From Elusimicrobiota bacterium (GTDB lineage: Bacteria > Elusimicrobiota > Elusimicrobia > UBA1565 > UBA9628), in the NCBI GenBank assembly GCA_026388095.1, contig JAPLKL010000069.1:8117-72116 (forward strand): DNA of 64,000 nucleotides. The letters are read 5' to 3'. Shown one piece after another: positions 1 through 12,711 of the stretch. Every line of letters begins with the position of its first letter. Within the stretch, counting starts at the first letter, position 1. The position numbers were made by a program, and so were the translations under genes. The notes beneath the pieces were generated by a model, which did not search any database, was not told the origin of the DNA, and saw only the letters and a program-made list of their open reading frames with translations.

Positions 1-126
1 AGGCCTCGTCCTGCGGCAGGCCGAGGATGCTGGGACAGTCACCCAGCGCCGCGTAGATGGAGACATGGGAATGGCGGTCGCGCAGCGGGGGCAGTGAGAG
101 GGTTCGGCTCACGACTGCAATCATAC
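1..126 (-). CDS. Partial CDS (N-terminal ~42 codons; continues beyond the window start). Hypothetical, with a D-x-H-x-H metal-hydrolase-like motif.
   Basis: On the minus strand an ATG at 126 reads MIAVVSRTLSLPPLRDRHSHVSIYAAL... and runs open to the window edge. The ORF is too short to appear in the track. There is no clear SD sequence. Confidence 0.25.
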
Positions 127-164
127 CAAGATAGCGCGCGGTCCATTTGTTAGAATAACGCTCG

Positions 165-689
165 ATGACTCAGGCCGCCAAGATCCTGGAGCTGGGCTGC
201 GGCGCCAACAAGACGCCCGGCGCCGTGGGCGTAGACCGCGTGGCCGGCCCGGGCGTGGACGTGGTCCACGATCTCAGGCGCCTGCCCTGGCCCTTCCCGG
301 ACAGCTCATTCGACGAGCTCCGGCTCTCCCACGTCCTAGAGCACCTCGACGATGTCCTGGGCGCCATGGAGGAGATCCACCGCATCGCCCGCCCGGACGC
401 CCAGGTCCTCATCTGGACCCCCCATTACTCGTCCATGAACTCCTGGACCGACCCCACGCACTGCGTGCACATGGGCCTTCATCCCATGGACCTGTTCACC
501 AAGGACGCGCGCTACGATTACACGAGCGCGCGCTTCGCCGTCCTGGAGAAACGCATCACCTTCGGCCTGGGGCTGCTGTGCCTGCCCGGCAAGCTCATCA
601 ACGCCTGGTCCCCGGACGCCTTCGAGAAGTACTTCGCCTTCATGTTCCCGGCCCGGGACCTGTTCTTCCGGCTGCAGGTCCTCAAGTAG
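165..689 (+). CDS. Class I SAM-dependent methyltransferase (Methyltransf_11-like)
   Basis: LELGCGANKTPGAVGVD is a glycine-rich SAM motif I. An acidic motif II and the short ~174-aa length fit a small-molecule or protein methyltransferase. Confidence 0.8.
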   Translation: MTQAAKILELGCGANKTPGAVGVDRVAGPGVDVVHDLRRLPWPFPDSSFDELRLSHVLEHLDDVLGAMEEIHRIARPDAQVLIWTPHYSSMNSWTDPTHCVHMGLHPMDLFTKDARYDYTSARFAVLEKRITFGLGLLCLPGKLINAWSPDAFEKYFAFMFPARDLFFRLQVLK

Positions 690-695
690 CCCGGC

Positions 696-1838
696 TCATC
701 GGGAATAGAGCTTCTCGTAGCTCTCGGCGACCCGCTCCAATGAGAAGTCCCGGGCCGCTTTCTCCCGGGCGGCCGCGCCCAGGCGTCCCGCCAGGCCCGG
801 CTCGGCGAGGAACCTCCCGAGCTTGTCGGCCAGCTCGTCAGCGTCCTGGGGAGCGAAGAGCAGCCCGGTCTTGCCTTCCTCGACCGCCTCGGCCGTCCCC
901 CCCACCCGGCTGCCCAGCACGGCCAGCCCCGAGGCCATGGCCTCCAGGAGGGCGTTGGAAAGCCCCTCGGAGACGGAGGGGAGGACGAAGACGTCCGCGG
1001 CCGCGTAAGCCTCCGCGATCCGCTCCATGGAGGCAAGCACGAAGATGCGCCCCGCCAGCGGGCTGGCCCGCGCGAGCGTCCGAAGCTCTTCGCCTTCGAG
1101 CCCGTCTCCCACCAGCGCCGCGAAGCCCGGCCGGTCCGCCGCGGCTCGGCACCAAGCCGACAGGAACCGGCCCAACTGCTTCTCCGGCGCGAGCCTGCCC
1201 ACATAGAGGAAGCCCAGGCCTTCGGGCCAGCCCAGCTTGCGCCGCAGAGCCCGCTTCTCATCGGCCGAGACCGGACGGTAGCGGGCCGTGTCCACGCCGT
1301 TGGGCTGGACCTGGACCGGCACCGGCCCGAGGAACTGCGCGCATTCCTGGGCCAAGCCCTCGGTCACAGCCGCGAACTGCGGCTTGAGCCAGGAGAGCAG
1401 GCGCAGCTTCAAGCGCCCCCCGACCGTCCTGTCCGAGGTGGCGAGCTCGCCGATGCCGCGGCCGCCGCCGAGCTTGATGATGACGCGCTTGCCCAAAAGA
1501 CGGCCGGCCAACGCCGCGGGCAGAGCCGGGGAGCCGGCGAGGTGGACGTGCACGGCGGAATACTCGCGGGCCCCGGTCCAGAGCCGGAGCCAGAGGGACG
1601 CCATGAAGGTCAGCGCGTTGAGGAAGCCTCCCCCGGCGCACCAGAGGCGCTCCACCGGGACGCCACGGACCTCCTCGTAGGCGGCCAGGCCGGGCAGCCG
1701 CCGGGTCAGGACCCGGACCCGGACGCCGCGAGCGAGCAAGGCGACCGAGAGCTCCAGGGCCTGCTTCTCCGCCCCCCCCACATAGGGATGGAAGCCGGCG
1801 CTGATCATCCAGACCGACAGACCGGGCAGGGTGGCCAC
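696..1838 (-). CDS. Glycosyltransferase family 4 (GT-B, GT1/GT4 clan)
   Basis: N-terminal GGAEKQ motif. C-terminal EGLSNALLEAMASGLAV...GG is the EX7E-type GT4 signature. Confidence 0.85.
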   Translation of the reverse strand: MATLPGLSVWMISAGFHPYVGGAEKQALELSVALLARGVRVRVLTRRLPGLAAYEEVRGVPVERLWCAGGGFLNALTFMASLWLRLWTGAREYSAVHVHLAGSPALPAALAGRLLGKRVIIKLGGGRGIGELATSDRTVGGRLKLRLLSWLKPQFAAVTEGLAQECAQFLGPVPVQVQPNGVDTARYRPVSADEKRALRRKLGWPEGLGFLYVGRLAPEKQLGRFLSAWCRAAADRPGFAALVGDGLEGEELRTLARASPLAGRIFVLASMERIAEAYAAADVFVLPSVSEGLSNALLEAMASGLAVLGSRVGGTAEAVEEGKTGLLFAPQDADELADKLGRFLAEPGLAGRLGAAAREKAARDFSLERVAESYEKLYSR

Positions 1839-1847
1839 AGCCTCAGC

Positions 1848-3014
1848 TCAGTTGGGCCGGAAGAACTCGGCCGCCACGCGGTCCCACTGGGTGTCGCCAA
1901 GCTGCGCCAGCTCGCCGACATGGAGGGCCCCATCCTGATATTCGTCAGTGCCGCCCTGCGGAGCCAATTCTCCCATGAGCTTGCGGAACCGCTCCAGGTC
2001 GTCCTGGTACAAGGCCACGGCCGACTTGCCGATGCGGAGCTCGGGCACTTCGACGTCGAGGTTGTCGGCGTCGATGACGCAGATCCAGTTGCGCTGGTAG
2101 GGCGTCAGGTCGAGCGCCTCGCAGTCCTCGCTCAGAGCCGGGTTGACCTTGACCACCTGCCCGCTGACCGGGGCGTAGAACTGTGCCCGGCGGCCTTTCT
2201 GGCGGAGGCTGAACAGCGGCTGGCCGGCTTTGACCGTCATGCCCACGTTGGGGAACTCGATGGAGTCCACCGGGCCGATGAGCTTCTTGGCGAAATCGTC
2301 CAGGCCGACCTTCACGGAGCCGTCCTGAGCCATGCTGGCCCAGCAATGGCCGCGGGAGATCAGCACCCCGCCCGGGATGGAGAACTCGCCGGCGCGGGCG
2401 CGCTGAGGCTCGGGCAGGTGGGTGATGTGGACCTGCGGCTGCAGCTGCTTGGCCAAGCGGTCCTGCCTCCGGATCAGGACCTTCTTCACGAAAGCCCGCA
2501 GCTCGTCCTCGGTGAAGGGCTTCTGCACATAATCCAGCGCGCCGTGCTTCATGCACTCCACCGCGGACTCCACGGTGGCGTAGCCGGTGATGATGACGAC
2601 GTCGATGTCCGGGCGCATGTGCTTTACGGACTTGACGACCTCGACCCCGTCCAGCGCCGGCATGCGCAGGTCGGTGAAGACGAAATCGTAATGGTGGGTG
2701 CGGATGAGCCCCAGCGCCTCCTGGCCGGTCTCCACCGTGTCGACGCAGTAGCCGTCCAGCACCAGGATCTTGCGGAAGCTGTCCAGGATCACGGTCTCAT
2801 CGTCCACGCAGAGGATGCGCGCCGCTGGGTCGGCGACCTCGGCGCGCTTGAGGGTCTTGGCCTCCCTCTGAAAATCGAGCTTGAGGCTCACGGCCAGGGC
2901 CGCCTCGCGCTCGCGCCGGATGCGCTGGTCGCGCAGCCTCTGGGCGGCCGACCGCACCGCCAGGTCGGCGAGCACGAACAGGATGACGGAAAGGAACAGG
3001 AACACGATCACCAT
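1848..3014 (-). CDS. Response regulator: N-terminal TM helix, REC domain, C-terminal GcvH-like (glycine-cleavage H protein fold) domain
   Basis: REC motifs are present: the acid pocket ILCVDDE, the phospho-Asp in FVFTDLRMP, and KPF. The C-terminus reads HCWASM...VKVGLDDFAKKLIGPVDSIEFPNVGMTVKAGQPLFSL...FYAPVSGQVVKVNPAL..PYQRNW, which aligns with GcvH (HEW...VGITDHAQ...APVSGEIV..PYxxGW). An AAGGAG RBS lies 7 nt before the ATG. Confidence 0.8.
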   Translation of the reverse strand: MVIVFLFLSVILFVLADLAVRSAAQRLRDQRIRREREAALAVSLKLDFQREAKTLKRAEVADPAARILCVDDETVILDSFRKILVLDGYCVDTVETGQEALGLIRTHHYDFVFTDLRMPALDGVEVVKSVKHMRPDIDVVIITGYATVESAVECMKHGALDYVQKPFTEDELRAFVKKVLIRRQDRLAKQLQPQVHITHLPEPQRARAGEFSIPGGVLISRGHCWASMAQDGSVKVGLDDFAKKLIGPVDSIEFPNVGMTVKAGQPLFSLRQKGRRAQFYAPVSGQVVKVNPALSEDCEALDLTPYQRNWICVIDADNLDVEVPELRIGKSAVALYQDDLERFRKLMGELAPQGGTDEYQDGALHVGELAQLGDTQWDRVAAEFFRPN

Positions 3015-3042
3015 GATGGGTCTCCTTCGGCATCGGGTCTGG

Positions 3043-3810
3043 TCATAGTCGCTCCGGACTGCACGAGCTCAGGCTCTTGAGGTCGTACTCCAGGTCCGCG
3101 GGCAGGACGCGGTAGAGCCAGCCCGCGAAGTACGGGTCCTTCTCCACCGCCGCAGGGTCCGCGGCCAGACGCTCGTTGCGCTCCACGACCCTGCCGCTGG
3201 CCGGGCAGAGCAGGCCGTGGCGCGCGCCGCCCTCGGAGACGAACGCGGCGCAGGGGGCGCCCTGGATGACTTCGCCGCCGGCCGGCGCCAGCTCCACCGC
3301 GCTCACTCCCTCCAGGGTCTTCAAGAAAGCATCTCCCGCGCCTATCAGGACGCTGCCCTCCGGCTCGGTCTTGAGCCAGCTGATGGTGCCCAGGCGGAAA
3401 TATCCCGACGGGCACGGCGCCCAGCCCGTTTTTTGAAGCTTACTATATTTCAGTCCGCGCCGGACCACCGACGTCAGCTCGTCTTCGGTGAAAGGCTTGG
3501 GAAGGAAGTCGATGGCGCCCGCCGCCAGGGAGCGCACGGCGTTGTCCACCGTGGAATACCCCGTGACCATGACCACGGGGGTGCGCAGCCCCCGCCGCGC
3601 CGCTTCGGCGAGGAAGGCGAACCCGTCGAGGTCCGCCATCATGATGTCGCAGACGACGAGGCGGTAGGAGCGCTGCCGCAGGCGCTCCAGGCCCGCCGCC
3701 CCGCGGGCCGCGACGTCCACGGTCAGACCCTCGGCCGCGCAGATCTTGGCGACCGCCTGTCCGACCACGGGCTCGTCGTCGACGACCAGCACGTCGCGCT
3801 CCCGGCTCAT
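3043..3810 (-). CDS. Response regulator: REC domain plus GcvH-like domain lacking the lipoyl-lysine
   Basis: The start MSRERDVLVVDDEP was chosen inside the longer track ORF. Its ATG overlaps the histidine-kinase stop as ATGA. REC motifs are VVCDIMM and KPF. The C-terminal GcvH-like region reads CPASGRVVERNERL...PYFAGWLYRV with no Lys at the lipoylation position. Confidence 0.75.
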   Translation of the reverse strand: MSRERDVLVVDDEPVVGQAVAKICAAEGLTVDVAARGAAGLERLRQRSYRLVVCDIMMADLDGFAFLAEAARRGLRTPVVMVTGYSTVDNAVRSLAAGAIDFLPKPFTEDELTSVVRRGLKYSKLQKTGWAPCPSGYFRLGTISWLKTEPEGSVLIGAGDAFLKTLEGVSAVELAPAGGEVIQGAPCAAFVSEGGARHGLLCPASGRVVERNERLAADPAAVEKDPYFAGWLYRVLPADLEYDLKSLSSCSPERL

Positions 3811-5672
3811 GGCTTGACCGGGATGCGCAGCACGAAGGTGGTCCCGGCGCCGGGAGCGCTCTCCACGGCGATGGTCCCGTTGTGGTTGTCCATGATGCCC
3901 CAGACCACCGCCAGGCCCAGCCCGGTGCCCTTCTGCCCTTTGGTCGAATAGAAGGGCTCGAAGATCTTCTCCCGCACCTCCTGGGGCATGCCGCAGCCGT
4001 CGTCGCGGACCTTGAGCTCCACGAACTCCTTGCGGTCCATGCCGTCGACCTCCTCCCAGCGCTGCCAGCCGCAGCCCGGCCGCGTGCAGCCTTCCACGAG
4101 GCCCCGGGCCGGGACCTCGAAAACGTAGACCGCGGACCCGCACTCGGGGCAGACCTTCTTGTCGACGAGCAAAGAGACCGAGCACTCCGGGCACACGAAC
4201 CGGGCCCCTGGGGCTCCGGCGGCGGCGACGGCGTGATGGTGCCCGCCCATGCCGTACATCGGGTTGAGGTAGAGGAACCCCTCGGCCTTATCGGAACGCA
4301 CCCGGATGCGCACCGTGGGCCTGCCGTCGATGCGGACCTCCTCGTCCATGAGGCTGTGCCGCTTGGGGCAGACCGCCTTCTTGATCTGGGTGATGCCGAT
4401 GGGGGAGAGGCTGAGCGCGGAGGAGGAGACGGTGATGGTCCCGCCCTTCGGCCCGATGGCGTCCGCGGCGTTGACGAAGAGGTTGATGAAGACCTGCTGC
4501 ATCTGGTTGGCGTCCACGGTCACCTTGGGCATGTCCGGCGCCAGCGACAAGACGAGCCGGACGGCGTTGAGCGCGAGCTGGCTCTCGATGACCGTGGCGG
4601 CGCGCCCCACGATCTCGTTGATGTCGGCCTCCCCCTTCTTGGGGACCGACTGCCGCGCGAAATCCAGGAGGCTCTTGACGATCTCCCGGCTGCGGATGGT
4701 CTCGCGCACGATGACCTTAAGGTCCTCCTGCAGTTCCGGCTGGTCCTTGGTGCGCTTGAGCAGGAAGCTGCTGTAGGTGAGCACGCCGGTGAGCGGGTTG
4801 TTGATCTCGTGAGCGACGCCGGCCGCCAGGCGCCCCAGCGAGGCCAGCTTGTCGGACTGGAAGAGCTGCAGGCGCGCCTCGGAGAGCTTGCGGGTCATGT
4901 TGTTGAAGGACTGCGCCAGCAGGCCCAGCTCGTCGTCGCCGCGCTCCCGGATGGAGCATTCCAGGTCCCCGCCCGCCACGCGCCGGGTCGCCTCCACGAG
5001 CTCGCGGACCGGGGCGTCGACCCAGCGCCTGACCAGGAGCCCGACGATGAGACTCAGCGCCAGGATGGCGCCGACCGCGAAGACCAGGATGCCGAGCTGG
5101 CCGCGCCGGATGTCCCGGTCGACCGCGGCCAAAGACATGGAGACGTCGAGCACTCCCAGGACGACCTGCGCGCGGGGGTGGGCGTGGCAGGCCGCGGTCC
5201 AGCACGAGGGGGCGTTGTAGATGGGGTTGATGATGCCCAGCGTGCGCGCGCTGTCGGGGCGCAGCCGGAACACCCGGGTGCGCTCCTTCATGTCCAGGCG
5301 CTCGAGCGGCCGGTCCGCGGAATGGCAACGGTAGCAGCTCTCCGCCTTCTTGTCCACCATCTTGCCGATCTCGGCGCGGTCGGAGGAGTAGATGATCTCC
5401 CCGGCCTTGTTCATCACGCGGATGCGCTGGATGCTCTCCTGGCTCCCCAGCCTGCGGATGGTGTCGTAGATGCGGTCGCGCTGATTGAAGCGCATGTCGT
5501 ACTCGGTGCTGGACTTGACCGCCTCGCTGAGCTGGTTGGCGTGGCGCTCCACCTCGGCCAGCAGGCTGCTGCTGTGGGCGCGGCTGTTGAACTCGGCGAA
5601 TATGCCGATGGTCACCAGCGCCGTGGCGCAGACGGCCAGAGTCAGCTTGAGGCCGATCTTCTCCCGGATCAT
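3807..5672 (-). CDS. Sensor histidine kinase (TM, HAMP, HisKA, HATPase_c carrying a ~110-aa Cys-rich insert)
   Basis: Start MIREKIG at 5672 overlaps the cytochrome stop as ATGA. The HAMP-like linker is followed by the HisKA H-box LAAGVAHEINNPLT, then the N-box NLFVNAADA, a DDGCGMP G1-like box and a GTGLGLAVV G2 box. An insert between the N-box and G1 box contains CPKRH, CPEC, CPEC and CTRPGCGW. Confidence 0.8.
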   Translation of the reverse strand: MIREKIGLKLTLAVCATALVTIGIFAEFNSRAHSSSLLAEVERHANQLSEAVKSSTEYDMRFNQRDRIYDTIRRLGSQESIQRIRVMNKAGEIIYSSDRAEIGKMVDKKAESCYRCHSADRPLERLDMKERTRVFRLRPDSARTLGIINPIYNAPSCWTAACHAHPRAQVVLGVLDVSMSLAAVDRDIRRGQLGILVFAVGAILALSLIVGLLVRRWVDAPVRELVEATRRVAGGDLECSIRERGDDELGLLAQSFNNMTRKLSEARLQLFQSDKLASLGRLAAGVAHEINNPLTGVLTYSSFLLKRTKDQPELQEDLKVIVRETIRSREIVKSLLDFARQSVPKKGEADINEIVGRAATVIESQLALNAVRLVLSLAPDMPKVTVDANQMQQVFINLFVNAADAIGPKGGTITVSSSALSLSPIGITQIKKAVCPKRHSLMDEEVRIDGRPTVRIRVRSDKAEGFLYLNPMYGMGGHHHAVAAAGAPGARFVCPECSVSLLVDKKVCPECGSAVYVFEVPARGLVEGCTRPGCGWQRWEEVDGMDRKEFVELKVRDDGCGMPQEVREKIFEPFYSTKGQKGTGLGLAVVWGIMDNHNGTIAVESAPGAGTTFVLRIPVKP

Positions 5673-6430
5673 GGCTGGTCCTGGTGGCAATGAGAGCACT
5701 GGGCGTCGGCGTGGCAGGAGAAGCACGGCTTGTGCAGGGTCTCCATCGAGCGCTTCGGCTTCTTGGGCTGGGCCGCGGCTCCCGGCGGGCGCGGCTTGGG
5801 CTCGTGGCAGCCGGCGCAGGTCTGGTTCTGATGGCAGGCCGTGCACTCCAGGCCGAACTGCTTGACATGCGCTTCGTGCCGGAAGGTCACGAACCGGCCC
5901 TTCTGGGAGGAGGTCTCGTAGACGATGGGAGCCGGGAGCTTGGCTTGGGGGAAGCCCTTGGGCGCGCCGCCGGCTCCGGGGCCGGCCTTGCGGGCATGGC
6001 ATGAGCCGCAATCGGATTCGTGGCTCCACTGCAGGTGGCAATCGACGCATTGCCGGTGGCGGGCCCCCTTGAGGTCGGGCTTGGTCAGGTCCGTACGGCG
6101 GCGCGAGGACGAGTGGCATTCGCCGCACTTGAAGATGGGGCGCGACTGGTTGTAATGATGGCAACCGTAGCAGCCGTCGCCCATCTCCGCCAGCTTCGCG
6201 TGCGCCTTATGAGGGAAACGGACCGGCCCGTAGGTGTCGGAGAGCTCGCCCATCGTGATCGTGCGGGGAGCCTGCGAGAGGGGATGGCGCCCCCAGATCT
6301 TCTCGCGGGGGCAGCTGACCAGCGCCGGGCTCTCTCGGGTCGGCTTGTCGCTGGTGTGGCAGGTCCGGCAGTCGGCCGCGCCCCAGGCGCCCGTCAGCGC
6401 GGCCAGCCCCAGCGCCAGGAGCATCTTCAT
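5669..6430 (-). CDS. Multihaem c-type cytochrome (9 CxxCH motifs) with signal peptide
   Basis: Start MKMLLALGLAALTGAWGA is a signal peptide. Nine CxxCH haem-binding motifs are present: CRTCH, CYGCH, CGECH, CVDCH, CGSCH, CTACH, CAGCH, CFSCH and CSHCH. A GGA RBS sits at -8. Confidence 0.8.
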   Translation of the reverse strand: MKMLLALGLAALTGAWGAADCRTCHTSDKPTRESPALVSCPREKIWGRHPLSQAPRTITMGELSDTYGPVRFPHKAHAKLAEMGDGCYGCHHYNQSRPIFKCGECHSSSRRRTDLTKPDLKGARHRQCVDCHLQWSHESDCGSCHARKAGPGAGGAPKGFPQAKLPAPIVYETSSQKGRFVTFRHEAHVKQFGLECTACHQNQTCAGCHEPKPRPPGAAAQPKKPKRSMETLHKPCFSCHADAQCSHCHQDQP

Positions 6431-6434
6431 GGGT

Positions 6435-7670
6435 TCATCCGTGCACCGTGTACTTGGCCTTGGGCGAGAGGGTCCGGTCGGGCAGGCTGATGACCGGGAA
6501 GAGCAGCACCGCGGCGCGGTAGAGAAGGACGAGCAGGCTGATGAAGCCAACGGTCACGCAGACCTCGCCGAAAGCCGGGTGGTAGGGCCGCAGCGAATAC
6601 GGCGGCGTGTAGGCGATGAGGAAGTTGTCCACCCGGTTGACCGCCACCCCGGCCACGACCAGGGCCGAGGCCGTGAGGAGCAGGGCCGGGGACTTGAGGA
6701 CCGCGCGCGACATGAACATGCGCAAAGGGATGACCACGCCGAACAGGACCTCGACCATGAACATGACGCTGGCGGTATTGAATGTCGCCAGGTGGACGAA
6801 GGTCTCCCGGACGAACATGTCCCCGATCTTGAAGGCGAGGTAGACGCCCAAGAGCGGCGCGGTCATGCGGCCCAGTCCCGCCAGGACGGACATCTCGGGC
6901 TTGAGGCCGAAGGAGCGCGCCGCCAGGAGGGATTCCAGGATCACCATGGGGAAGCCCACCGAGACCGCGGAGAGCAGGAACAGCAGGGGCAGGATCGGGG
7001 TCTGCCAGAGGGGATGCATCTTGGGCCCGGCGATGACCATGAGCGTGCCCAAGGAGGACTGGTGCAAGGTGGAGAGCACGACGCCGGCGATGATGAAGAC
7101 GAACATGGTGCGCGCCAGGCCGCGGTCCAGGGCGGCGAGCAGGCGCTCCGCCAGGGGGTTGAGCCTGGCCAGAGGGCCCGGCAGAGCCACGCGCCCCAGG
7201 AAGCGCTCGACCGCCACGGGCAGGAACTCGATGTAGAGGACGTGGATGTAGATGACCACGCAGATGCCGACCTCGAAGAGGGCCGAGGTGCCGTTCCACA
7301 TGACCAGGGGATGCCAGATGTAGTAGGGACGCCCGATGTCGATGCAGACGCCCAAGGCCACGAAGGTGTAGCCCAGCAGCGCGGTGAGCAGGGCCGGCCG
7401 CACCACCGCGTGGTACTGCTCCCGGTGCATCACGTGGCCGAGCGCCGCCGTGGTGAAGCCTCCCGCGGCCAGGGCCACGCCCGCGGCCACGTCGATGCCG
7501 ATCCAGATGCCCCAGGGGTACTGGTTGCTCAGGTTCGTGACGGCTCCGATGCCGAAGAGCAAGCGGCCGGCCAGGAAGACCAGTCCGTTGAGGGCCAGAA
7601 GGATGAGCACTCCCACGCCGGGAGTCAGGAAGCGCCGGGGCAAGGGCGTGGGCCTCATGAAGCGGTCCAT
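6435..7670 (-). CDS. NrfD/PsrC-family polytopic membrane subunit (quinone-interacting)
   Basis: Start MDRFMRPTP is preceded by a GGAGG RBS and lies 2 nt after the FeS gene stop. The protein is ~411 aa with 8-10 predicted TM helices and resembles NrfD/HmcC/ActC/PsrC. Confidence 0.8.
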   Translation of the reverse strand: MDRFMRPTPLPRRFLTPGVGVLILLALNGLVFLAGRLLFGIGAVTNLSNQYPWGIWIGIDVAAGVALAAGGFTTAALGHVMHREQYHAVVRPALLTALLGYTFVALGVCIDIGRPYYIWHPLVMWNGTSALFEVGICVVIYIHVLYIEFLPVAVERFLGRVALPGPLARLNPLAERLLAALDRGLARTMFVFIIAGVVLSTLHQSSLGTLMVIAGPKMHPLWQTPILPLLFLLSAVSVGFPMVILESLLAARSFGLKPEMSVLAGLGRMTAPLLGVYLAFKIGDMFVRETFVHLATFNTASVMFMVEVLFGVVIPLRMFMSRAVLKSPALLLTASALVVAGVAVNRVDNFLIAYTPPYSLRPYHPAFGEVCVTVGFISLLVLLYRAAVLLFPVISLPDRTLSPKAKYTVHG

Positions 7671-7672
7671 GC

Positions 7673-8566
7673 TCAGGCCTCCTCCCCGGACTCCGGGCTG
7701 TGCTTGGCGATCCACATGACCGCCCCCAGCAGGGCGTAGAGCGAGACCGGCGGGATGAAGTAGGCGAATATGCCGTGCTGGATGCTCTCCGAGACCCCGG
7801 GCGCCGGGCTGCGTCCCAGACGGGGGAACTGGAGGGCGGCGAAGTCGACTCCGGAGAGGTAGAGCCAGTCGGTGCCGCCCACCTCGAACTCCCCGAAGAC
7901 GTGGCTCACGTAGCGCTCCGGGAAGCGCCGGACCCGGTCTTTGGCGATGCGCACCAGCTCCTCGCGCGGGCCGAAGGTCATGACCTCCATCGGGCAGATC
8001 TCCACGCAGGCCGGGATCCTCCCGGCCTTGCGCCGCTCGAAGCAGAAGTCGCACTTCATGATCCGGGGCTGGAGCGCCTTGTGATATTCGAAGGCCGGGA
8101 TCTGGAAGGGGCAGGCGATCATGCAGTAGCGGCAGCCGATGCACTTGTCCGTGTCCCAGACCACCGCGCCGTTCTCAGCCTTGGTGAGCGCGCCTACGAT
8201 GCAGGCCGAGACGCAGGCCGGCTGGGCGCAGTGCATGCACTGGACCTTCACGGTGACGGGGAGTCCGGGCTTGCGGGGGTTCTCGTAGCGGTTGACCACG
8301 GTCAGGGCCGTGTCGTCGGGGCGGCGCATCCGGGCGAAGACCGAGCGGTCCTCATAGGCTTCCTGAGGAGGGGTGGCCAGGCCGTGGGCCTGCTTGCAGG
8401 CGTATTCGCAGTTGCGGCAGCCGATGCAGACGGTGGTGTCCACGAGCACGCCGCTGCGCTCGGGCGCCGGCGACCGGCCGCCCGAGGCCTGGGCGGCGGA
8501 GGGAGTCAGCCCGGCGCCCAGGACCGCGGCGCCCGCCAGGAACTCCCGCCGGGTGAGGTTCGCCAC
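7673..8566 (-). CDS. 4Fe-4S ferredoxin-type iron-sulfur subunit with Tat signal (NrfC/HmcB/PsrB-like)
   Basis: A GTG start gives MANLTRREFLAGAAVLGA, which carries the twin-arginine RREFL motif. Four CxxCxxCxxxCP-type clusters are present: CIGCRNCEYAC, CMHCAQPACVSAC, CIGCRYCMIACP and CDFC...CVEICP. Confidence 0.75.
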   Translation of the reverse strand: MANLTRREFLAGAAVLGAGLTPSAAQASGGRSPAPERSGVLVDTTVCIGCRNCEYACKQAHGLATPPQEAYEDRSVFARMRRPDDTALTVVNRYENPRKPGLPVTVKVQCMHCAQPACVSACIVGALTKAENGAVVWDTDKCIGCRYCMIACPFQIPAFEYHKALQPRIMKCDFCFERRKAGRIPACVEICPMEVMTFGPREELVRIAKDRVRRFPERYVSHVFGEFEVGGTDWLYLSGVDFAALQFPRLGRSPAPGVSESIQHGIFAYFIPPVSLYALLGAVMWIAKHSPESGEEA

Positions 8567-8568
8567 GC

Positions 8569-9591
8569 CTATTTCCCTGCTCCCGGGTAGCGCGGCGGCA
8601 CGCGCAGGCCGCGCGCCGCGAGCATGGAGGCCAGGCGGCCGGGGTCGTCCGTGATGATGCCGTCCACGCCCCAGGACAGGAGCTTGGCGACGAGGCCGGC
8701 ATCGAATGTGGTCCCGAGCTTCTCGGGCCAGCTCCACACGACGACCTTGAGGCCCAGGCGGTGGGCCTCGGCGAGCGCCGCCTGGGTCAGCTCGGCGTCC
8801 TCGGGCTCCCAGGCGAAGCCGCCCAGGGCCTTGACCATCCTGGGGATGGAGCCGCCGTAGTCCTTGACGAGCGCGCCCCCGGTCCAGAGTCCCGCGGCCT
8901 TGGGGTCCTCGCCGTAGAAGCTGTCCGGCCCGCCGGGCTCGTTGTCCCGAGAGGTCAGGTAGGCGGTCTTGACGTTCCGGTCCAGCCGCCGCAGCTCGGA
9001 GAGGCAGCGCCAATCGAAGGCCTGGATCTCGGCGCGGCCGATGATGCCTTCCTCCTTGAGGATCCGGTGGAGGGCCTGGGCGAAAGCCTTGGGGTCCGGG
9101 CTGCGCTCCGGCTGGGCCGGGTCGGTCTTCATCTCGATCTGGAAGCCCATCTTATGCCGGGCGGCCTTCTCGACATAGCGCGCGACTTCGCGCAAAGTGG
9201 GCATGTGCGTGCCGTCCACCGGGACTTGGTCAGGGAAGAACTTGGCGTAAGCGCTCTCCGGGTTCAAGCGGCCCACGTCGAAGCTCTGGAGCTCGCGGAG
9301 CGTGAGGTCCTTGGCCGCGGGGCCCTTGGTGATGTAGCGCCCGGCGCTGTCGCGGGCGAGGTTCGGGCTGACCAGGAGGTCGTGGGAGACCAGCACTTCG
9401 CCGTCCTTGGTGAGCACGACGTCCATGTCCACCCAGTCCGCGCCGATGCTCAGAGCGGCCCGATAGGCGGGCAGGGTGTTCTCCGGGGCGAAGGAGCGGC
9501 CGCCGCGGTGGGCGTAGACCTGCACGGAGCCGGCGGGCGCGGCGGGCGCGGCCAGGACGAACGCCGAGAGCAGGGTCGTGAGTTGGGTCAT
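8569..9591 (-). CDS. Glycerophosphodiester phosphodiesterase (GDPD family) with signal peptide
   Basis: Motifs YAHRGG, PENTLPA and DxD...E/H match GDPD. The N-terminus is a hydrophobic signal peptide. A GAGG RBS is present. Confidence 0.85.
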   Translation of the reverse strand: MTQLTTLLSAFVLAAPAAPAGSVQVYAHRGGRSFAPENTLPAYRAALSIGADWVDMDVVLTKDGEVLVSHDLLVSPNLARDSAGRYITKGPAAKDLTLRELQSFDVGRLNPESAYAKFFPDQVPVDGTHMPTLREVARYVEKAARHKMGFQIEMKTDPAQPERSPDPKAFAQALHRILKEEGIIGRAEIQAFDWRCLSELRRLDRNVKTAYLTSRDNEPGGPDSFYGEDPKAAGLWTGGALVKDYGGSIPRMVKALGGFAWEPEDAELTQAALAEAHRLGLKVVVWSWPEKLGTTFDAGLVAKLLSWGVDGIITDDPGRLASMLAARGLRVPPRYPGAGK

Positions 9592-10261
9592 GTCGCCTCA
9601 GCGCCCCGGGGCGCTGTCCCCATTGTACTATCTTTGCGGAATGCGACAGGCATGACGGCGGTCATGGGTTGCACCCACTGAAAGCAGGTAGGCTGGCGAA
9701 ATGCCGTACCGGCCCTGGCGGCGCAGAGCGCCGCCAGGCGCGCGCCCCGCTATTCCTCTGGGGCGCGCAACCTCATGAAAGCACATTGTCCCGGAATCGT
9801 ACATGCCTGTCCGTGATGGCTGGCCGCAAGCAGAAGACCGATATGGCGCGGTCCGCTTGCGCACCAGCCTCCGGATGGGGTCACAGCCCTCTATTGAGGT
9901 TGCGCGCGTGAGAGGAAAGGACGCGCGCGGGTTCCGGCGCCGGGCGCCGGAACCTCCATTGTGATGGGCTTTCTGGATGACTGCAAAAGACGGCGCCTGC
10001 GGTATCGGAAGTTCCACCGGTGCCGGCCGGACGGATCTCCTTACGGCCGGCGACTTCGCGAGATAAAAGTATTTATGCCACCAGCGCTTTTTGATATTTC
10101 ACCGCCAGCGCTGGAGGTAATGTGACGAAAAATACATGCGCCGCCAACACTTTCTTGTTCAGAAGTCGCCGCGCTTGGCGCGACTCGACGGTCGGTGAAA
10201 ATCACCTACTTATCTTGGGTGCGCCCGCGGTCATGGCTTCGGGATAGGCCTCGGGCGAGAC

Positions 10262-11683
10262 TCAGAGCTTCTGCCGCAGCAAAGCGTCCATATCGAAGCT
10301 CGCGGCATCCGCCGCGCGGGGCGCCACCCCGAGACGTTCTCTGAGATAATCCAGAGCCTGTCGCGCGCGCCGGATATGGTAGCGTTCGGACGCCTCCTGC
10401 AGCATGGGCGCCGCGAGAAGCGGCATCCGGGCCTGGAGATATCTGAGCCCGGTCATCTCCAGGAGCTCCTCATGACGCATGCCGGTATCCCGGGGCAGGT
10501 CCGCCGCGTAAGGGGAGATCTGCGGAGCCGGGACCTCGCGAGGCGACACGGCCGACGGCTCGCGATGCTGCAGGACTTCGTCGATCGCGCGGCTCCAGAG
10601 GAAGGCCAGGGTCCAATTCCCCTCCATGGAAAGATGTATCCCGTCCACGATGAAAGGGAACGACAGGACGCCCCGCGGCGAGGCCCGGACGATGAAGTCC
10701 CGCAGTCCGACGACGTGCCCGCCGAAACGGCGCGCGGACCGTTTCCAGCATTCGCCGCGTTCGATGATCCGGTCGTCGCCCCTCACCAAGGATCGCGCCA
10801 GCGAATCGGGATCGCAGCCCTTGGTGAGCCGGCAGACCAGCAGCCGGCGATAGTCGCCGTCGCAGGCGTCCAGGAAGGAGCCCAGCGATCCGTCCCCCGC
10901 CTCGCGCCTGCGCGTGTACTCCAGAGACGTCACGGTGCTCTGGACGGGCGTGGTCACCACGGTCTCAGCGCCCATCTGCCGGGCCGTCTGAACCAGCAGA
11001 TCCGTCCAGGCTTGGAAAGCGAGGTCCGCGTCGCACCGGTCGTGCCCCGGGAACTGAGGGCCGCCCCGTTGACGGAGCAGCGAGATCAGGAGGTCGGGCC
11101 CCCGCGCCCTCACGGTCCAGAGCAGATGGGAACGCTCCACGAGCCGCCGCCAAAGGCCATGCGCCTTCGGCCGGCTCAAGGGCAGGCACGCCTCGGAGTC
11201 CGTGTCGAAGCGGTCGTTCACCCCTTGATAGAAGATGATGAGGTCCGGCTGGTATCGTCTTATGGCGAGCAGGTAGTAGTAGGCATCCATGGCCATCGAG
11301 CCGGCGCGCCCCATGTTGACGACCGTGATGGGCCGGTCCGGCAGCCTGGCGCGCAGGAAGTCGCGGAGCATGGTGGGCGCGCTGCCGAAAGGCCCCCAAG
11401 GACTGCCCTGGACACTCGACTCTCCGAAGACGAACACGCGCAGCTCTCCCTTCCGGCGCCGCCGGCCCAGGGGCGCGCCCGGGCGGTGGTCCGATATCCC
11501 GTGGTCGCTGATGCGGTAGTTCACCAGCGGCAGCCGACTGACGTAGACGCCTTCTTTCAACAGCACCGGCGCCGGCACCGGGAGGAAGAGCCGAGTCAGG
11601 AGTTCGAGGGCCGAGACCGTCAAGACGAAGCTGGCCGCCGATAGCGCCACCCGCGGCAGCAGGAAGCGCAGGGCCTTGCGCAT
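10262..11683 (-). CDS. SGNH/GDSL-family hydrolase, membrane-anchored
   Basis: Start MRKALRFLLP was chosen within the longer track ORF, 2 nt after the upstream stop. The protein has an N-terminal TM helix. VFVFGESSVQGSPWG is a GDS(L)-type block I, and a later D...H lies near the C-terminus. Confidence 0.65.
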   Translation of the reverse strand: MRKALRFLLPRVALSAASFVLTVSALELLTRLFLPVPAPVLLKEGVYVSRLPLVNYRISDHGISDHRPGAPLGRRRRKGELRVFVFGESSVQGSPWGPFGSAPTMLRDFLRARLPDRPITVVNMGRAGSMAMDAYYYLLAIRRYQPDLIIFYQGVNDRFDTDSEACLPLSRPKAHGLWRRLVERSHLLWTVRARGPDLLISLLRQRGGPQFPGHDRCDADLAFQAWTDLLVQTARQMGAETVVTTPVQSTVTSLEYTRRREAGDGSLGSFLDACDGDYRRLLVCRLTKGCDPDSLARSLVRGDDRIIERGECWKRSARRFGGHVVGLRDFIVRASPRGVLSFPFIVDGIHLSMEGNWTLAFLWSRAIDEVLQHREPSAVSPREVPAPQISPYAADLPRDTGMRHEELLEMTGLRYLQARMPLLAAPMLQEASERYHIRRARQALDYLRERLGVAPRAADAASFDMDALLRQKL

Positions 11684-11685
11684 GC

Positions 11686-12711
11686 CTACCCGCGGCGCCT
11701 GCGCGCCAGCACCCCGGGCTTGGGGACCAATCCGTGGGGCAGGACCTTGAGCACGTCGAAGCCCGCCTCTTCGCACCAGGCGGCCAGCTCCTCCTTGGTG
11801 TGGTGGGACTGGAACGGCGGAGAGAGCCAATCGAAGTTCTCGATGAGCCGGACCCGGTAGCTCGGGTGCACGGAGAAGGTCAGGTACTTCACCAGGGGCA
11901 GGGCTCCCAGCGCGGCCAGCGGGGAGCACAGCAGGTAGACCAAAGCCAGCGGCAGGCGCGTCGTGAACACGCGCAGGCAGTCGCTGAGCAGATGCCTCGC
12001 CCCCACCACGAACCAGGCCAGACGCCGGTGCTCCTCCACCCAGGCCCGCTCCGGCCGCAGAGGATTCGTCGCGAAATCCTCGAAGCTCCCGGCCTTGCCG
12101 TAGAGCCACACGCTCAGAAGCCCCCCCGGCTTGACCAGCCTGGCCACGGCCAGGAACGCCTCATGCGCATCCTTGGTGTGATGCAGGACCCCGTGGCTGT
12201 AGACGAGATCGAAGAACCCGGCCCGGAACGGCGGCTTGAGCAGGTCGCCCTGCACCACGTGCAGGCGCTCCTCCTCGCGAGCGAAGGGCGCCAGCCTGGC
12301 CAGGCTCCCGGACAGGTCCACCCCCGCCACCTCCGCGCCCAGAGACAGCGCCACCAAGGTGTAGCGTCCCATGCCGCAGCCCGCGTCGAGCACGGTCTTG
12401 CCCTGCAGCTCTGCGGCCTCCAGCTGGCACTCCTCCAGGAACACCGCCTGGTCCTCGGCCAAGGAGCCCGGATAGCGCGACCACTCCCAAGTGAAGCTCC
12501 GGCTCGTCGCGGCCACGCGCGCATCGATCTGCTCCTCGAGCAGGAGCCGCGGCACGGACTCGGCGATCGGATACTCGCGGCGGCAGGAGCCGCAGGCCAG
12601 GCTGCCCGCCTCGATGTCCGCCTTCGGCTCCGGCATCACGCTCAAGCTCGCGAAGCGCATTGGCGCGCCGCAGCAGGGCGACGCCAGCCAACCCAGCAGA
12701 CCCATCTTCAT
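11686..12711 (-). CDS. SAM-dependent methyltransferase with N-terminal Trm112-like zinc ribbon
   Basis: The MKMG start overlaps the upstream stop as ATGA. CCGAP...CGSCRREYPIAESVPRLL is a Trm112p-like CxxC...CxxC ribbon. VLDAGCGMGRY is SAM motif I. Confidence 0.7.
   Translation of the reverse strand: MKMGLLGWLASPCCGAPMRFASLSVMPEPKADIEAGSLACGSCRREYPIAESVPRLLLEEQIDARVAATSRSFTWEWSRYPGSLAEDQAVFLEECQLEAAELQGKTVLDAGCGMGRYTLVALSLGAEVAGVDLSGSLARLAPFAREEERLHVVQGDLLKPPFRAGFFDLVYSHGVLHHTKDAHEAFLAVARLVKPGGLLSVWLYGKAGSFEDFATNPLRPERAWVEEHRRLAWFVVGARHLLSDCLRVFTTRLPLALVYLLCSPLAALGALPLVKYLTFSVHPSYRVRLIENFDWLSPPFQSHHTKEELAAWCEEAGFDVLKVLPHGLVPKPGVLARRRRG

Follow-up and report, generated by a model that had tools for sequence, protein, structure and literature searches.

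A metal-ligand-rich domain nested in the catalytic domain of an Elusimicrobiota sensor histidine kinase, and its likely zinc sites

Histidine-kinase catalytic and ATP-binding (CA) domains are regarded as compact and architecturally invariant, and the question raised by the locus studied here is what a large stretch of additional residues, rich in Cys and His, is doing inside one of them. The window, a 64,000-nucleotide stretch from an Elusimicrobiota bacterium (contig JAPLKL010000069.1, positions 8,117 to 72,116 of the forward strand), encodes on its minus strand a sensor histidine kinase (3807-5672) in which an earlier note, made from the sequence alone, had recognised a Cys/His-rich insertion, had placed it in the ATP-lid region and had proposed that a metal or redox centre there could gate kinase activity directly. 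We find that the kinase itself is of a known kind, and that what is new is an unnamed eight-ligand domain nested in the β-sheet of the CA domain, together with the protein family to which this domain belongs. With moderate confidence we favour a reading in which the nested domain, seated in the CA hairpin and holding two probable Zn sites, serves as a docking or regulatory module. Searches of the literature turned up no account of the kinase, of the insert or of the receiver/GcvH-like response regulators encoded beside it, nor of any other CA β-sheet in which an entire cofactor-type domain is nested, and no such case is known to have been described.

Position and conservation of the insert

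The motifs quoted in the earlier note are all present in the kinase, namely NLFVNAADA at residue 397, CPKRH at 435, GGHHH at 476, CPECSVSL at 494, CPECGSAV at 508, CTRPGCGW at 529 and DDGCGMP at 557. The features that define the kinase and the place of the insert within it are these:

3807..5672, minus strand: sensor histidine kinase, 621 aa, with a first transmembrane helix (TM1), periplasmic domain, TM2, HAMP, HisKA and a split HATPase_c
4458..4484, minus strand: N-box NLFVNAADA, residues 397-405, N397 and N401 invariant
4023..4418, minus strand: nested insert, residues 419-550, with boundaries taken from ZraS, from an insert-less paralogue and from the flanking strands of the AlphaFold2 (AF2) model
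3984..4004, minus strand: G1 box DDGCGMP, residues 557-563, D557, G559 and G561 invariant
3912..3929, minus strand: G2 box GTGLGL, residues 582-587, G582, G584 and G586 invariant

Aligning the protein to kinase profiles, a check that the earlier note had proposed, splits HATPase_c and puts the insert boundaries at ~419-550. Kinases from NCBIfam and the PDB align in two collinear stretches, one running to residues ~418-420 and the other starting from ~551, and in the alignment to ZraS (PDB ID 9jfj) residue 418 corresponds to chain position 162 and residue 551 to position 168, so that 5 residues in ZraS stand at the site where the window kinase has 132. ZraS, CckA (PDB ID 5idj) and AtoS-type kinases (NF008468) are built, like it, from a dimerisation and histidine phosphotransfer (DHp) domain and a CA domain, with the H-box of DHp and the N, G1, F and G2 boxes; the 9jfj and 5idj chains match at E-values of ~3e-32 to 5e-32 and the AtoS model at 5.5e-63, in every case in two collinear stretches. 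Where these kinases have a turn of ~5 residues, between the two β-strands that come after the N-box helix, the window kinase has 132 residues forming a separate metal-ligand-rich domain. A closer comparison is offered by an insert-less paralogue from an Ignavibacteriaceae genome (L018 1925-3517, 530 aa), which has the same layout of transmembrane helices, periplasmic sensor, HAMP, HisKA and HATPase_c at 33% identity, and in which HATPase_c is uninterrupted (Pfam profile positions 4-110). At the site of the 137 residues of the window kinase the paralogue has 10, which makes a net insertion of 127 aa. The large insertion described between the N-box and the G1 box is thus real, although the two boxes are separated by 151 residues and not by the ~110 first reported.

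Outside the insert the kinase has the parts one would expect. HAMP is found at residues 215-264 (Pfam PF00672, 53 bits, cutoff 25) and HisKA at residues 279-340 (PF00512, 56.7 bits, cutoff 26.9), while the AF2 model places long helices at 6-61 and 182-233. PF02518 scores 84 bits (cutoff 26.4) and matches HATPase_c in one stretch only, profile positions 35-110 falling on residues 548-620. As an orthologue set we used the 120 best homologues, which are 62-100% identical to the window kinase and 605-630 aa long; among them the phospho-acceptor H288, within HEINNP, is 99% conserved, and F574 is invariant in addition to the N, G1 and G2 residues listed above. A check of the boxes found N, G1 and G2 correctly assigned, with the ATP lid lying between G1/F and G2 (residues ~563-582) and with a normal G1-to-G2 spacing, from 557 to 582. 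Since the catalytic residues of the H, N, G1 and G2 boxes are conserved the kinase should be active, and as judged from its sequence it should be a normal, catalytically intact HisKA/HATPase_c sensor kinase.

A full-length AF2 model, built on the alignment of the 120 sequences, orders this region as an N-box helix (388-406), a strand (411-422), an all-β region and a second strand (548-557) that reaches the G1 aspartate. The blocks of the insert are modelled at a predicted local confidence (pLDDT) of 75-91 between these two long strands, and in the model the insert sits at the tip of a β-hairpin lying between the N-box helix and the G1 strand, on hairpin strands that are ~3-4 residues longer than those of ZraS. 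The proposed location in the ATP lid is accordingly rejected, as residues 419-550 lie upstream of G1 (557) and the spacing from G1 to G2 is normal. Judging by the strand lengths, a gap of roughly 25-30 Å would separate the nearest cluster of putative ligands from the nucleotide site. Since the insert sits at the hairpin tip and outside the lid, it is unlikely to gate catalysis directly from within the lid.

By its column identities the insert is the least conserved region of the kinase, yet it is clearly constrained. Mean column identity across the 120 orthologues is 0.65 in the insert, 0.74-0.82 in the two CA halves and 0.91 in DHp, and within the insert C435, H439, C494, C497, C508, C511, C529 and C534 are invariant, to a degree far exceeding what chance would produce. 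The GGHHH run, which had been listed among the features of the insert, turns out to lie in a variable stretch (residues 472-482, window 4227-4259, minus strand) that is the only low-confidence loop of the domain (pLDDT ~60), and of the run only H478 is conserved, in 88% of the orthologues.

These data bear directly on the suspicion that the insert is a local artefact or a recent selfish insertion without function, such as an assembly chimera, a mobile element or an intein-like sequence. The search for homologous inserts found it in every one of the 120 best homologues, the most distant of which is 62% identical, with the query covered end to end. When one genome per species was scanned with a back-translated pattern, 147 species proved to encode a relative of the insert, and the loci we kept (80, L001-L080, all from metagenome-assembled genomes) carry the labels Elusimicrobia, Gemmatimonadota, Ignavibacteria/Bacteroidota, Verrucomicrobia, Kiritimatiellaeota, Victivallales and several Gammaproteobacteria, that is, at least seven named bacterial groups. 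A word-index search with the insert alone had returned only 4 matches, an undercount as shown by the full-length search and by the exhaustive profile search described below. Moreover, the G+C content of the insert segment equals that of its flanks, a Pfam scan gave no intein or transposase match, and the fold of the domain is predicted with confidence. We found nothing in favour of an artefact or mobile element; it is refuted by the retention of the insert in orthologues, the conservation of its ligands and its spread over the 147 species, and we give it next to no credence.

The domain family and its proposed metal sites

The insert is a complete, autonomous all-β domain of ~105 residues that belongs to a widespread unnamed family. 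The proposed metal sites are given here with the core that they share:

4041..4394, minus strand: autonomous eight-ligand all-β domain core, residues 427-544, the unit common to standalone and NuoE-fused proteins
4356..4370, minus strand: proposed metal site B, N-terminal knuckle C435-P-K-R-H439, invariant in orthologues
4140..4193, minus strand: proposed metal site A, C494-P-E-C497 / C508-P-E-C511, on which the zinc-ribbon matches are centred, with all four Cys invariant
4071..4088, minus strand: proposed metal site B, C-terminal knuckle C529-x4-C534, invariant and followed by the kinase-specific W536 and W539

An exhaustive search of 1.84 billion representative proteins with a profile of the insert (alignment A1) gave matches to 381 representative clusters at E ≤ 1e-3 and to 99 at E ≤ 1e-10, of which kinases are only a minority. 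The core of the domain, profile positions ~21-127, is found as standalone proteins of 130-150 aa, as tandem pairs of ~280 aa, as the C-terminal domain of NuoE-like thioredoxin-like 2Fe-2S proteins, and at the end of an adenylate cyclase/AAA protein and of a Mur-ligase-like protein. The NuoE fusions came from a second, index-limited alignment search that gave at least 30 matches. In the source annotations these homologues are labelled "hypothetical protein" or given generic zinc-ribbon labels. That the insert occurs as an independent domain outside kinases had been missed in the earlier note.

The family is held together by its ligands. The full pattern C-x2-4-[CH] ... C[PSAT]xC-x6-16-CxxC ... 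Cx4C is present in 95 of 148 newly fetched matches, with a span from first to last Cys of typically 99-100 residues, and in a set of 74 domain homologues, to which the window insert aligns over its whole length, seven Cys are invariant down to ~20% identity. The eighth ligand is always Cys or His: in most standalone forms it is a Cys at +3 (CxxC), and in the kinases and their nearest standalone relatives it is a His or Cys at +4 (CPKRH, CPNGH, CPKGC).

Modelled alone with AF2, the domain reaches a pLDDT of 90.2 and a predicted template-modelling score of 0.85, with nine β-strands, two short helices and a secondary structure like that in the full-length model. A Foldseek search of the domain against the PDB gave no match below E = 0.3, and no Pfam or NCBIfam model covers it. 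Searching the PDB with the sequence profile gave only marginal matches, all to Zn-binding proteins: YfgJ (E = 9e-4), anti-TRAP, HVO_2753, TopoI, L37a and Rpb12. As there is no fold match and the ribbon matches are marginal, the whole domain is without a solved relative and just its central ribbon is familiar, the nearest known forms of this ribbon being DZR (PF12773), Zn_ribbon_6 (PF07191)/YfgJ (PDB ID 2jne) and the TFIIS/Rpb9/Elf1 ribbons.

The eight ligands would make up two tetrahedral sites. Site A, composed of C494/C497 and C508/C511, would be a classical zinc ribbon in the middle of the domain, and its knuckles border the AF2 strands 491-493, 502-507 and 514-520. Its two CPxC pairs had been described as 15 residues apart, whereas C497 and C508 are separated by 10. 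Site B, composed of C435/H439 and C529/C534, could form a Cys3His clasp that ties the N- and C-terminal ends of the domain to each other. We propose this clasp because a nested domain must bring its ends together and the remaining knuckles lie at its extreme ends; C435/H439 precede the first strand of the domain and C529/C534 follow its last hairpin. Such a geometry would seat the domain in the hairpin without disturbing the ATPase fold.

As for the metal itself, similarity points most often to zinc. The likeness to a zinc-ribbon or rubredoxin knuckle suggested by the earlier note holds for the central CPxC-x10-CPxC, on the strength of mostly sub-threshold Pfam zinc-ribbon matches and the marginal zinc-ribbon matches in the PDB. 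DZR is matched by 40 of the 74 homologues at E ≤ 0.01 (best E 7.7e-6) and Zn_ribbon_6 by 34 of them, and the family matches of this set, although mostly below threshold, are nearly all to zinc-ribbon or zinc-finger families and lie over the central knuckle pair. The window insert itself stays below the cutoff, with 21.5 bits for DZR (cutoff 27.3) and 16.9 bits for Zn_Ribbon_1 (cutoff 25). Rubredoxin gave no match in the window insert at E ≤ 0.01 and ranks outside the 25 families that the 74 homologues match most often; Fer4 gave no Pfam match in the kinase and does not appear among the listed matches of the homologues. Because the similarities are all to zinc ribbons, and rubredoxin and ferredoxin matches are lacking both in the insert and among these 25 families, we suggest that the metal is most likely Zn(II).

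With its 381 representative clusters the nested unit defines a sizeable uncharacterised family. The annotation of many genomes would gain from a name and a structure for the domain and from knowledge of its metal and partner, and the domain could reveal a new way to regulate a kinase or a respiratory complex.

Possible docking or redox roles, and the host operon

On the minus strand, the kinase gene comes fourth in a compact operon of six genes (1848-8566), whose other products, together with the sensor motifs of the kinase, are as follows:

7673..8566, minus strand: Tat-exported 4Fe-4S dicluster (Fer4_11) subunit, first gene of the module
6435..7670, minus strand: NrfD-family integral membrane subunit, 67-87% identical in loci with an orthologous module
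5669..6430, minus strand: periplasmic c-type cytochrome bearing nine CxxCH motifs, a conserved upstream neighbour of the kinase
5178..5336, minus strand: periplasmic sensor motifs of the kinase, C113xxCH117 and C157xxxxCH163xH165, invariant in orthologues
3043..3810, minus strand: response regulator A, receiver and GcvH-like domain, 255 aa, its ATG overlapping the kinase stop
1848..3014, minus strand: response regulator B, N-terminal transmembrane helix, receiver and GcvH-like domain, 388 aa

Projecting on its lengthened hairpin away from the lid, the nested domain would offer a docking or regulatory surface and not a catalytic site. Candidate partners are the two receiver/GcvH-like regulators, and contacts between kinases or between the kinase and a complex can also be envisaged. 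We consider the regulators first because they are always found with the insert kinase, whereas the insert-less paralogue is paired with a σ54-dependent regulator of the receiver/AAA+/helix-turn-helix type. Neither regulator has a DNA-binding or enzymatic output domain, and regulator A is conserved directly downstream of the kinase wherever the contig extends. The kinase-specific invariant residues Q429, I430, K431, K437, R438, W536 and W539 flank site B, and from their conservation they are candidates for contact residues. An allosteric effect on the kinase could nevertheless arise if the metal-thiolate sites were lost or oxidised.

Several points weigh against a zinc-bearing docking module. 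The assignment of ligands to sites, and likewise the distance to the ATP site, are inferred from sequence order, secondary structure and CA-domain topology. Cys4 and Cys3His ligand sets are also able to bind Fe in a rubredoxin-like manner, or a 2Fe-2S cluster. The correlation between the insert and the type of regulator may go back to a single evolutionary event. Finally, homologues of the domain recur in redox contexts, namely NuoE fusions, hyp clusters and a PyrK/NfnA-like neighbour, and a redox role accounts for this no less well than a purely structural one would.

These contexts speak for a different role, in which the eight ligands hold redox-active iron, as a rubredoxin-like Fe(Cys)4 site or a Cys3His 2Fe-2S centre, and the domain reports the cytoplasmic redox state (NADH or ferredoxin) to the CA domain, to be integrated with the periplasmic haem input. 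In three independent operons the domain is fused to, or directly follows, a NuoE-like 2Fe-2S subunit (L081 7610-8465, L082 1-391 and L095 6001-7134), and these operons go on with a NuoF::GltD-like flavoprotein (the fusion being intact in L082 and L095 but in pieces in L081), a ferredoxin resembling the N-terminal part of NuoG and a protein with a GltB FMN domain. Ahead of the NuoE operon, L081 and L095 have genes for a GAF kinase and a σ54 regulator. Standalone copies lie inside hydrogenase-maturation clusters of two different lineages, one within HypC/D/E/F (L086 7001-7402) and others within clusters of HypA, CobW/HypB-like and HypC/D/E/F (L089-L091 5001-5402), and a tandem-duplicated form with an acidic ...DSDEW tail (L087 5001-5849) precedes a gene for a PyrK/NfnA-like Fe-S flavoprotein. 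In the window the operon of the kinase encodes the nine-haem cytochrome, the FeS subunit and the NrfD subunit, and the fit with adjoining multihaem cytochrome and FeS genes seen in the earlier note is borne out by their being part of a conserved six-gene module. CPxCG knuckles occur in rubredoxins as well, and one standalone member of the family has a sub-threshold match to an NCBIfam rubrerythrin-like model (26.7 bits, cutoff 32).

Against an iron centre, the families leading the matches of the 74 members are nearly all zinc-ribbon or zinc-finger families, with rubredoxin outside the top 25, every marginal sequence match in the PDB is a Zn-binding protein, and the ferredoxin-type CxxCxxCxxxCP motif is absent from the insert. 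By the AF2 model and CA topology the proposed site would also be far from the ATP lid, and other standalone copies are found in non-redox surroundings, next to ProRS/Era, FtsX or MatE genes. The contexts of the standalone homologues are therefore mixed, some redox and some uninformative, and being few they do not decide the function. We regard a redox-active iron centre as unlikely, though it deserves to be taken seriously, and redox gating as less likely than a structural or docking role.

Redox chemistry could also act through the zinc itself. In a thiol-based switch, for which RsrA and Hsp33 are models, oxidants or electrophiles would oxidise the thiolates, free the Zn that these hold at rest, unfold the nested domain, perturb the CA β-sheet and alter kinase output. 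The eight invariant thiolate and imidazole ligands would suit such a switch, as would an operon devoted to redox chemistry, and since the domain is spliced into the core CA β-hairpin its unfolding would propagate into the sheet. However, zinc ribbons are mostly inert structural elements and the sequence fits a purely structural site equally well, and we consider the switch decidedly improbable.

A broader proposal, to which we give a low though slightly greater probability than to the zinc switch, is that the domain is a new redox- or metal-responsive fold that provides the kinase with a second, cytoplasmic input besides its periplasmic dihaem sensor. Were this so, the second input would consist of Fe or thiolate chemistry tied to the NADH/ferredoxin pool, the kinase would compare the redox states on the two sides of the membrane, and the domain would be an unrecognised redox-sensing cassette. 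The same module would then play a corresponding part on NuoE-type subunits of NADH-dependent oxidoreductases and in the neighbourhood of hydrogenase-maturation genes. Known respiratory and redox sensor kinases that depend on cysteine chemistry or a bound cluster, such as RegB, ArcB and NreB, have the reactive Cys or the cluster in DHp or in PAS/GAF input domains, and none of them is known to carry a metal-ligand domain nested in the CA domain. A docking or regulatory module with two probable Zn sites remains the role that we favour.

The six-gene module, gene boundaries and a paralogous cluster

The operon that houses the kinase is likewise uncharacterised and forms a self-contained module, present in many phyla, that combines a kinase bearing haem motifs with two regulators lacking a DNA-binding domain. 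In most of the 80 loci all six genes recur with order and strand unchanged; some Verrucomicrobia loci are without the three redox genes, and several Gammaproteobacteria loci have only distant NrfD/FeS homologues. Comparison of the flanks of the loci revealed no conserved neighbours outside the six genes, and none that would name the function under its control. Conservation of the module without conserved flanks points to lateral spread in one piece or else to very strong constraint.

On the periplasmic side of the kinase, no Pfam model covers the domain at residues ~30-195 (window 5088-5585, minus strand). Its motifs C113xxCH117 and C157xxxxCH163xH165 are probably two sites of covalent c-type haem attachment. 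The second of these putative sites has the rarer CX4CH spacing. Turning to the regulators, in both of them the position of the lipoyl-lysine, which we take from an alignment to E. coli GcvH, is occupied by Gly, and they are probably not lipoylated.

The translated minus-strand open reading frame 3807-5672 is identical (100%) to P0005, a protein from an Elusimicrobia metagenome-assembled genome, whose source label is just "ATP-binding protein". The kinase starts at an ATG at 5670-5672 that overlaps the stop of the cytochrome gene (ATGA). The list of open reading frames continues the kinase frame upstream to 6164, as an apparent extension to 785 aa; we place the true start at 5672 because the length of the orthologues and the ATGA overlap agree. 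Such overlaps of start and stop are found at both ends of the kinase gene, at 5669-5672 with the cytochrome gene and at 3807-3810 with the gene for regulator A, which implies translational coupling. The high G+C content (~0.66-0.74) across window positions 1-12000 gives rise to many long, overlapping and spurious open reading frames on both strands, and also to the apparent extension of the kinase frame.

The insert-less paralogue, which shares the periplasmic CxxCH and Cx4CH motifs with the window kinase, is part of a paralogous cluster (L018 561-4341, minus strand) near the main module, and like stretches are present in ~19 other Ignavibacteria/Bacteroidota loci. This cluster also encodes the σ54-dependent regulator and a 241-aa protein without a Pfam match that has a Cys-rich N-terminus (C-x13-C-x6-C-x2-C) and weakly resembles the GcvH-like regulators. 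Near the cluster there is often another NrfD/FeS pair.

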